A stretch of 5,879 nucleotides of DNA from NCBI RefSeq assembly GCF_003334815.1, contig NZ_QOWO01000071.1; one strand, written 5' to 3'. Below are positions 1,590-3,254 of the stretch, in pieces (positions within the stretch are counted from its first letter, which is position 1; every line of letters starts with the position of its first letter). The DNA comes from Escherichia coli (GTDB lineage: Bacteria; Pseudomonadota; Gammaproteobacteria; Enterobacterales; Enterobacteriaceae). Under the pieces are notes generated by a model. The model saw only the letters and a list, made by a program, of their open reading frames with translations. It was not told where the DNA came from and did not search any database. The translations under genes were made by a program, and so were the position numbers.

Positions 1590-3254
1590 TTAAAACGTTT
1601 CCCAGTTCTCCCCGCTATCTGCTACGGCCATTTTACGCGGCGCAGCTGGCGTCACGGTTTTTACCACAGCCGATGTTTCACGCTGATGTTGCTGCTGTTG
1701 CTGAATCCGGAACACTGCCACAGCTTCGGTCAGGCGACTGGCCTGCTCTTCCAGCGCGGCGGCGGCGGCGGCAGATTCTTCCACCAGCGCAGCGTTCTGT
1801 TGAGTTACCCGGTCCATCTCAGCGACCGCTAAGCCAACCTGATCGATACCACGGCTCTGCTCATCAGAAGCAGAAGCTATTTCGCCCATAATGTCCGTCA
1901 CGCGGGTCACAGCACTGACAATCTCCGCCATTGTTTCCCCGGCGCTTTCGACCAGCGTAGAGCCAACATCCACTTTCCCCACCGAGTCTTCAATCAGGCT
2001 TTTAATTTCACGAGCCGCCTGGGCGCTACGCTGGGCCAGATTACGCACTTCTCCCGCAACCACCGCAAAACCGCGCCCTTGCTCACCCGCACGCGCTGCT
2101 TCAACCGCCGCGTTCAAAGCCAGAATATTGGTCTGGAAGGCAATGCCGTCAATTACGCTGATAATATCGGCGATTTTCTGCGAGCTGGTGGAGATATCGC
2201 GCATAGTCTGTACTACGTTATCCACCACTTTGCCGCCACGTTGCGCCGTTTCAGAAGCACTTAACGCCAGGTGGCTGGCCTGGCGCGCATTCTCGGCGTT
2301 CTGTTTCACCGTTGCGGTCAGTTGCTCCATGCTGGCTGCCGTCTCTTCCAGCGAAGCGGCCTGTTGCTCGGTGCGCGAAGAGAGATCGTTATTGCCGGTG
2401 GCGATTTCGCTGGCACCGCTATAAATGGCATTGGCCCCGTTGCGCACATCACCGACGGTACGCATCAGCTCTCCCTGCATATGGCGCAAACTCTCTGCCA
2501 GTTGCCCCATCTCATTAGAGCCATCCACCTCAATCGGTTTCACCAGATCGCCGCCTGCAATATGACGAATGCTGTCAATCAGGCGATTCATTGGCGCTAC
2601 CAGCGAGGCTTTAATACCGAACCAGACGGCGAAGATGACCGCCAGTACGACGATCATCACGCCCACCAGAATCCACATCGCCTGGCTGTAGGAGGCATTA
2701 TTATCGCTGACGGCGATATCATAGAGCCGATCGTTTTGCTCCATGTAAGCCACATACTGCTTCTCGAAACCGTCCTGATATCCCTGGGTCGGCTGATCAA
2801 AGAACTCGTTGATTTTGCCTGCACCTAACAGTTGGATCAGCTCCGCCAGCGCATTGTGATAAATATCGTAATTACGTTTGATCTCTGCCGCTGCGGCGGT
2901 GCTCTGACGCGGGTCACGCGGCAACGCTTCGTAATCCGCCCAGTTTTTTTCCGCCTGTTTCAGCGAAATACTGGCACTCTCCATCAGCTCAGCAACGGTT
3001 GAACCGCTACCAATATTATTCTGATCCATCATGTAGCGGATACCCGCGCGGTTGAGGGTGTTACGCGTCTGCAACAACGCGACCCAGCTGCCATTCAGCG
3101 TGGATTGCTGCTGGCGAATGGTTTGTAAAACAGTGAAATTTTCTTTGTCATTCTTTAAGGCATTAAAGAACAGACCGCCTGATGTCAGTTGTAAAAGGCC
3201 AAAAACGGCCAAAACCAGCAGTAAGCTGGTCACAATTTTGATACGTTTTAACAT
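1590..3254 (-). CDS. tsr: Methyl-accepting chemotaxis protein I, serine chemoreceptor Tsr, 554 aa
   Basis: 554-aa ORF on the - strand. It has an N-terminal TM segment, a periplasmic domain, a second TM segment, a HAMP region, the highly conserved MCP signalling hairpin ([40 protein letters not shown]), methylation-helix EE/QE motifs, and the C-terminal NWETF pentapeptide that docks CheR/CheB. ATG start at 3252-3254 with an AGGA SD 10 nt upstream. About 3 residues longer than the 551-aa K-12 Tsr as I recall it. Confidence 0.95.
1683..1703 (-). repeat. tsr: CAG/CAA trinucleotide tract encoding QQQQQHQ in the Tsr C-terminal flexible tether
   Basis: The - strand reads cag caa cag cag caa cat cag (Tsr residues 518-524), in frame and immediately before R-E-T-S. 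Confidence 0.8.
1755..1772 (-). repeat. tsr: (GCC)5GCG trinucleotide tract encoding Ala6 in the Tsr C-terminal region
   Basis: The + strand shows cgg cgg cgg cgg cgg; the - strand codons are GCC x5 followed by GCG, giving ...[13 protein letters not shown]... Confidence 0.8.
1781..1788 (-). other. Chi site (GCTGGTGG) on the - strand, inside tsr
   Basis: The + strand reads ccaccagc at 1781-1788, the exact reverse complement of Chi. Confidence 0.6.

Follow-up and report, generated by a model that had tools for sequence, protein, structure and literature searches.

A nine-base in-frame repeat in the C-terminal tether of Tsr, the serine chemoreceptor of Escherichia coli, present in one to four copies among genomes

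We propose, with considerable confidence, that the glutamine tract in the C-terminal tether of Tsr encoded on a 5,879-base stretch of Escherichia coli DNA (hereafter the window) is the two-unit allele of a slippage-prone in-frame repeat, in which two units are probably the ancestral number and the K-12 form is a contraction by one unit. Among other E. coli genomes the 9-bp unit occurs in one to four copies, unequal copy numbers are found between identical flanking sequences, and the 554-aa length of the window protein recurs in most complete E. coli genomes and in divergent Escherichia.

Identity of the window and of the tsr gene

The window is a segment of the E. coli chromosome with a single mismatch against strain HS30-1 over 5,754 bases (99.98% identity), and it is 98.7% identical to a K-12-like strain. 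Its gene content is as follows.

180-1541, plus strand: lgoT
1590..3254, minus strand: tsr (serine chemoreceptor, MCP-I), 554 aa, stop codon included, from the list of open reading frames
3616-5781, plus strand: btsT

On sequence grounds, the gene on the minus strand is the orthologue of tsr, and every feature of the family that could be tested was found in it. The NCBIfam Tsr equivalog model NF011615 matched the window protein with 1222.9 bits (cut-off 947) over positions 1-554 of 554, and the Tar model scored 751.6 bits on the same protein, under its own cut-off of 900. Pfam placed TarH at residues 1-176, HAMP at 217-263 and MCPsignal at 327-484, and the protein ends in NWETF after a linker of ~30-35 residues (33 from I517), as expected of a pentapeptide-tethered receptor. 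The annotated neighbours agree as well, since tsr is flanked by btsT and lgoT in the window, in the K-12-like strain CIT and in HS30-1 alike. The window gene and the tsr annotated in HS30-1 are 100% identical, and the exact protein is already known (RefSeq WP_001565441.1). In a whole-gene comparison with complete E. coli genomes, 74 were at least 99% identical to the window tsr. The match in strain MDK9L1 spans 1,664 bases for the 1,665-base query, which suggests a 1-base indel and hence possibly a frameshifted tsr, or else an error in the MDK9L1 assembly.

The glutamine tract and its position in the tether

The tether of Tsr is disordered, and CheR and phosphorylated CheB dock at the NWETF pentapeptide (PMC7390727, PMC10561060). 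The flexible part has been counted from I517, which gives 30 residues in K-12 (PMC10561060). The available structures of the Tsr helical bundle stop close to this position, the last residue being R516 in the PDB model 8C5V and Q520 in the 1QU7 construct. The corresponding features of the window are listed below.

1593..1607, minus strand: NWETF pentapeptide, residues 550-554, docking site of CheR/CheB (position from the translation; role from PMC7390727, PMC10561060)
1608..1706, minus strand: C-terminal tether I517-E549, 33 residues with I517 included (K-12: 30; I517 start from PMC10561060)
1683..1703, minus strand: glutamine tract QQQQQHQ, two-unit allele of a 9-bp repeat plus a trailing CAG (from the sequence, Tandem Repeats Finder and the gap against K-12)
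1695..1703, minus strand: repeat unit 1, CAGCAACAG (Q518 Q519 Q520), from the sequence; other genomes have 1 to 4 of these units
1686..1694, minus strand: repeat unit 2, CAGCAACAT (Q521 Q522 H523), from the sequence

Read on the minus strand from 1703 to 1683, the codons are CAG CAA CAG CAG CAA CAT CAG, i.e., QQQQQHQ at Q518-Q524, which reproduces the segment, the coordinates and the 554-aa Tsr given by a first-pass annotation of this DNA. As the annotation had also placed it, the tract opens the segment that separates the helical signalling domain from the NWETF pentapeptide. Tandem Repeats Finder reported the interval 1682-1704 with period 9, 2.6 copies, 85% matches and a score of 39, a grade that is unremarkable, as the 5.9-kb window contains three arrays of equal grade. 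We consider the tract real as a repeat locus because its copy number in the population data varies from 1 to 4 among genomes.

The tsr of the K-12-like strain CIT, located at the K-12 map position, encodes a 551-aa product with QQQQ in the tract context FRIQQQQRETSAV, in accordance with the K-12 length that the first-pass annotation had given. Protein and DNA alignments of the window and CIT Tsr contain one gap, of 3 codons (9 bp), within the tract, as had been suggested for the difference from K-12. The K-12-type protein thus has no identical QQQQQHQ segment and the three-residue difference falls in the tract; outside it, the two proteins differ only at residue 178 (Y in the window, H in K-12) and residue 548 (G in the window, E in K-12). 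The description of the tract as a slippage-prone trinucleotide run needs amendment, as the repeat is indeed slippage-prone and its unit is the 9-bp CAGCAACAG.

A search against Rfam gave no RNA family over the tract or elsewhere in the window, and a plus-strand open reading frame overlapping the tract (1466-1891) was dismissed as a mechanical frame antisense to tsr. A perfect (GCC)5-type run at 1756-1772 (Tandem Repeats Finder, period 3, 5.7 copies) encodes the alanines A495-A500, which belong to the structured C-terminal helix of Tsr. The K-12 run has a GCT interruption, whereas that of the window is perfect; unlike the Gln tract, the A495-A500 run was of constant length in the genomes examined.

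Allele series and frequencies

The tract was read directly in 24 further E. coli genomes, in which it is a coding repeat of the form (CAGCAACAG)n + CAG. A second, parallel series ends in the unit CAGCAACAT and comprises QQHQ, QQQQQHQ and Q8HQ. Alleles were counted in 5,426 complete E. coli genomes by short queries designed such that the 28-base megablast seed fits the intended allele alone.

n=1, QQQQ, 551 aa: 1,208 genomes (K-12-like, BEN2908, N63 and others)
n=2, QQQQQQQ, 554 aa: ~3,800 genomes (O157:H7, O25:H4, O104:H4 and others)
n=2 with His, QQQQQHQ: 257 genomes (including HS30-1 and SMS-3-5; the allele of the window)
n>=3: 75 genomes, counted with a query of at least 3 units
n=3, Q10, 557 aa: LF82, HS and O104:H21, read directly
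n=4, Q13, 560 aa: RM14723, read directly
QQHQ, rare, last unit CAGCAACAT: GF43, read directly
Q8HQ, rare, last unit CAGCAACAT: JNE120442, read directly

The 55-mer for QQQQQQQ matched 3,878 genomes at a coverage of at least 80%, a figure in which up to ~75 alleles with n>=3 are counted. With a 99-base query, 4,058 ungapped long forms were obtained against ~1,300 that differ in length or are divergent in sequence, out of the 5,382 genomes in which the region is present. The window length amounts to ~75% and the K-12 length to ~22% of these 5,382 genomes, frequencies that belong to a collection rich in laboratory K-12 and B derivatives and are not population frequencies. Because of this richness in K-12 and B derivatives, the short allele probably has a frequency below 22% in nature. 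The long-form strains include O104:H4, O25:H4, O157:H7 and SMS-3-5, which are assigned to phylogroups B1, B2, E and F.

All copy-number states seen in the sampled matches and in the alleles read were in-frame and of 1 to 4 units. Length changes of ±3 bp (i.e., a single CAG or CAA) were absent from ~100 match rows spread over the results and from the 24 alleles read. A sequencing or assembly artefact was rejected, given that the length classes are exact multiples of 9 bp in more than 5,000 finished genomes, K-12 included. Phase variation at a contingency locus was likewise rejected, as a 9-bp unit preserves the frame and all alleles read are intact open reading frames up to NWETF.

Recurrent gain and loss of the repeat unit

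We compared 85 bases upstream and 93 bases downstream of the tract (178 nt) among strains of different copy number. The flanks of O104:H21 (n=3) are identical over the 178 nt to those of O104:H4 and O25:H4 (n=2), and the same holds for RM14723 (n=4) and LF82 (n=3). BEN2908 and N63 (n=1) differ in their flanks from strain 98210 (n=2) by 1 nt, and the flanks of HS (n=3) are 1 nt from those of RM9975 (n=2) and 2 nt from those of K-12 (n=1). Because matching flank haplotypes carry unequal copy numbers, the unit has been gained or lost repeatedly; the change in copy number is recurrent and does not represent one historical indel. Recombination could mimic such recurrence, and the number and direction of events deduced from the flanks, rather than from a core-genome phylogeny, are minimum estimates.

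Recurrent gain and loss fits the prediction of replication slippage for a short tandem repeat, from which we infer slippage itself as the underlying process. Slippage between 9-base units would add or remove three glutamines per step. With a segment that is unstructured and a unit that is a multiple of three, each copy number would give a full-length Tsr of functional appearance, and proteins with 1, 2, 3 or 4 units (551, 554, 557 and 560 aa) would persist as a natural polymorphism.

The histidine codon of the window allele

The first-pass annotation had presented the window as a length variant of the glutamine tract. Its length turned out to be that typical of the species, and the uncommon part is the CAT codon (His523) only. 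The T at 1686 (A on the plus strand) is the only base that separates the window allele from the majority QQQQQQQ, which has G at this position. A 55-mer centred on the base at 1686, which seeds on T-carrying alleles only, matched 259 genomes; in 257 of these, 4.7% of the 5,426, the match covered at least 80% of the query.

The His codon might be older than the Gln codon of the majority, as an intermediate between the Arg (CGT or CGC) of an outgroup and the majority CAG, a tentative reading that we regard as possible and somewhat less probable than its converse. Codon 523 in the outgroup Escherichia lineages is indeed Arg, encoded by CGC or CGT, and a path CGT to CAT to CAG takes two steps via His, one step fewer than if His had arisen as a separate derived mutation. 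The distribution of the carriers points in the same direction. In an NJ tree calculated for ten full-length tsr sequences after masking of the tract (1,607 sites), four His-carrying genes were not monophyletic and lay on diverged backgrounds, 18-33 of the 1,607 sites apart, within the range of 18-35 found for the E. coli alleles overall; moreover, 257 genomes have His, yet just 74 are at least 99% identical to the window tsr. On the other hand, a single G to T change from the majority allele is equally simple, intragenic recombination could have spread one such mutation over several backgrounds, and Q7 itself can be reached via CGG in as few steps. The NJ tree has a star-like shape, probably reflecting recombination, and resolves neither the order of His and Gln nor the polarity of copy number within E. 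coli.

Contraction in K-12 or expansion in the window

The direction of the 9-bp change rests on the comparison of lengths outside the K-12 lineage. Two divergent Escherichia encode a Tsr of 554 aa, namely BS-01 with QQVQQRQ (~3% of sites different from E. coli tsr) and SCPM-O-B-8794 with QQAQQRQ (~10% of sites different). A scan of species-representative genomes, whose listed matches came from other genera and from one divergent Escherichia, yielded 16 Tsr orthologues from genera that include Leclercia, Enterobacter, Citrobacter, Pseudocitrobacter and Pseudescherichia; the nearest outgroups, E. albertii, E. fergusonii and Salmonella, were absent among the matches listed. Among these matches, the spacing between I517 and NWETF ranges from 31 to 47 residues; the spacing of 32 in the window equals that of 6 of the 16, and the K-12 spacing of 29 is below all 16. 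In Leclercia and Enterobacter (FRIQQ[D/E]QQKAR...), the number of residues from I517 to NWETF is the same as in the window. In addition, the curated NCBIfam Tsr model has a length of 554 positions, and PDB 3ZX6 includes the Q7 long form of Tsr.

Because the majority of E. coli, the divergent Escherichia and other genera share the long length, 554 aa is probably ancestral and K-12 contracted. The K-12 Tsr most likely carries a 9-bp contraction, its derived state being deduced from these sequence comparisons.

The opposite polarity, i.e., that the window allele arose by a 9-bp slippage expansion from a K-12-like QQQQ ancestor, was the one favoured by the first-pass annotation, and we now consider it unlikely. 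The majority long allele is a perfect tandem duplicate (CAGCAACAG CAGCAACAG), as a duplication would leave, and the alleles with n=3 and n=4 show that expansions happen at this locus. Nevertheless, such an expansion would have to account for a long form that is in the majority (~75% of the 5,382 genomes) and spans the four phylogroups mentioned above, for a seven-residue segment and an equal total tether length, with no gap, in the divergent Escherichia and in other genera, and for a K-12 spacing shorter than in every orthologue sampled among the matches listed. As a counterpoint to the contraction that we prefer, the two perfect units of the majority allele fit a recent duplication, and an early contraction in E. 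coli followed by re-expansion could have produced them.

The tsr of BS-01 is ~3% different overall and ~9% different around the tract (90.6% identity over 96 bases), which suggests a mosaic or recombinant 3' end of the gene, or else a divergent lineage labelled E. coli.

Likely effect of a three-residue change in the tether

In Tar constructs with chains of 22, 29, 34 and 46 residues, the peak position of tethered CheR changes linearly with chain length, at 0.128 ± 0.048 nm per residue (PMC10561060). A change of ±3 residues therefore predicts a shift of ~0.4 nm, or ~1.1 nm in contour at 0.36 nm per residue, which is small beside a chain of ~12 nm. The earlier statement that tether length affects the reach of the adaptation enzymes is therefore plausible in principle, although the effect predicted for three residues is small (PMC10561060). 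On this model, alleles that differ by ±3 residues would be near-neutral.

An alternative is that copy number is adaptively tuned, so that lineage-specific tether lengths set CheR/CheB reach and adaptation kinetics. This would be in line with the effect of tether length on the spatial distribution of tethered CheR in Tar (PMC10561060), with the recurrence of copy-number changes and with the observation that the states seen are all in-frame, from 1 to 4 units. The size of the predicted shift speaks against it, and between genera the tether drifts freely both in sequence and in length (31 to 47 residues). Furthermore, near-identical flank haplotypes differ in copy number with no evident ecological pattern, their hosts and sources being mixed. 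We regard it as even less probable than an expansion from a K-12-like ancestor that the recurrent addition or removal of three glutamines, giving tethers of 30, 33, 36 or 39 residues, measurably tunes CheR/CheB reach and the speed and precision of serine adaptation, and lineage-specific tuning by selection appears just as improbable. If it were true, K-12, the basis of quantitative chemotaxis models, would have an atypically short and functionally distinct allele.

Comparison with known systems

Several known systems can be set beside the tract and its protein. The K-12 Tsr shares with the window the locus btsT-tsr-lgoT, the NWETF pentapeptide and the tether sequence downstream of the tract; it differs in its tether (30 residues versus 33 in the window) and in its tract (QQQQ versus QQQQQHQ), K-12 representing the minority contraction. 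The majority E. coli Tsr, i.e., that of O157:H7, of ST131 and of the Tsr part of PDB 3ZX6, has the length and the two-unit repeat of the window, from which it differs by one base (CAG instead of CAT in the window at 1686, Gln instead of His523).

Bacterial coding VNTR or minisatellite loci subject to slipped-strand mispairing resemble the tract in their tandem units, in copy numbers that vary among strains (1 to 4 here) and in recurrence. Unlike them, the Tsr tract is a very short array whose unit is a multiple of three, without frameshift or ON/OFF switching. The C-terminal linker of Tar (34 residues) is also a flexible tether for NWETF, and experimental changes of its length shift the reach of CheR (PMC10561060); it differs in having another sequence without a Gln repeat, and the experimental changes were of 5-12 residues as compared to the natural three-residue steps of Tsr.

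The tract of the window is an ordinary natural polymorphism of a well-known protein, its variation is of a routine kind and the long form of Tsr is already known from PDB 3ZX6. We found no prior description of the tract polymorphism in the open-access papers searched. The species-typical tether of Tsr (33 residues) nearly matches that of Tar (34), and K-12 (30) is atypically short for the species. Because the K-12 tether is in the minority and probably contracted, arguments that connect a 'shorter Tsr linker' with the geometry of its methylation sites (PMC10561060) rest on a peculiarity of K-12. The natural series of 30, 33, 36 and 39 residues offers ready material for models of tethered enzymes.

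Neighbourhood of tsr

In the 48-bp gap between the convergent lgoT and tsr, a hairpin with an 11-bp stem followed by a T run (1549-1578) is probably a bidirectional intrinsic terminator common to both genes. In RM14723, LF82 and BEN2908, tsr is followed by an annotated TRAP transporter large permease in place of lgoT, and because of this replacement in three strains we conclude that the region downstream of tsr varies by E. coli lineage.

Window positions 1-77 are missing at the K-12-like locus, with which the alignment begins at position 78. In HS30-1 these positions run on into an annotated IS5-like transposase of the ISKpn26 family, and positions 9..1 on the minus strand (ATGAGCCAT) correspond to the first three transposase codons. 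Since positions 1-77 continue into the transposase, an IS5-family element is inserted just upstream of lgoT (in K-12, the lgoR side of the intergenic region), and it may affect the regulation of lgoT.

The mechanical open reading frame of btsT starts at 3616 (721 aa), compared to 2,151 bp and 716 aa in the annotation of HS30-1 and K-12. Translation probably begins at the ATG that lies five codons downstream of 3616 (MDTKK...; window 3616-3630).
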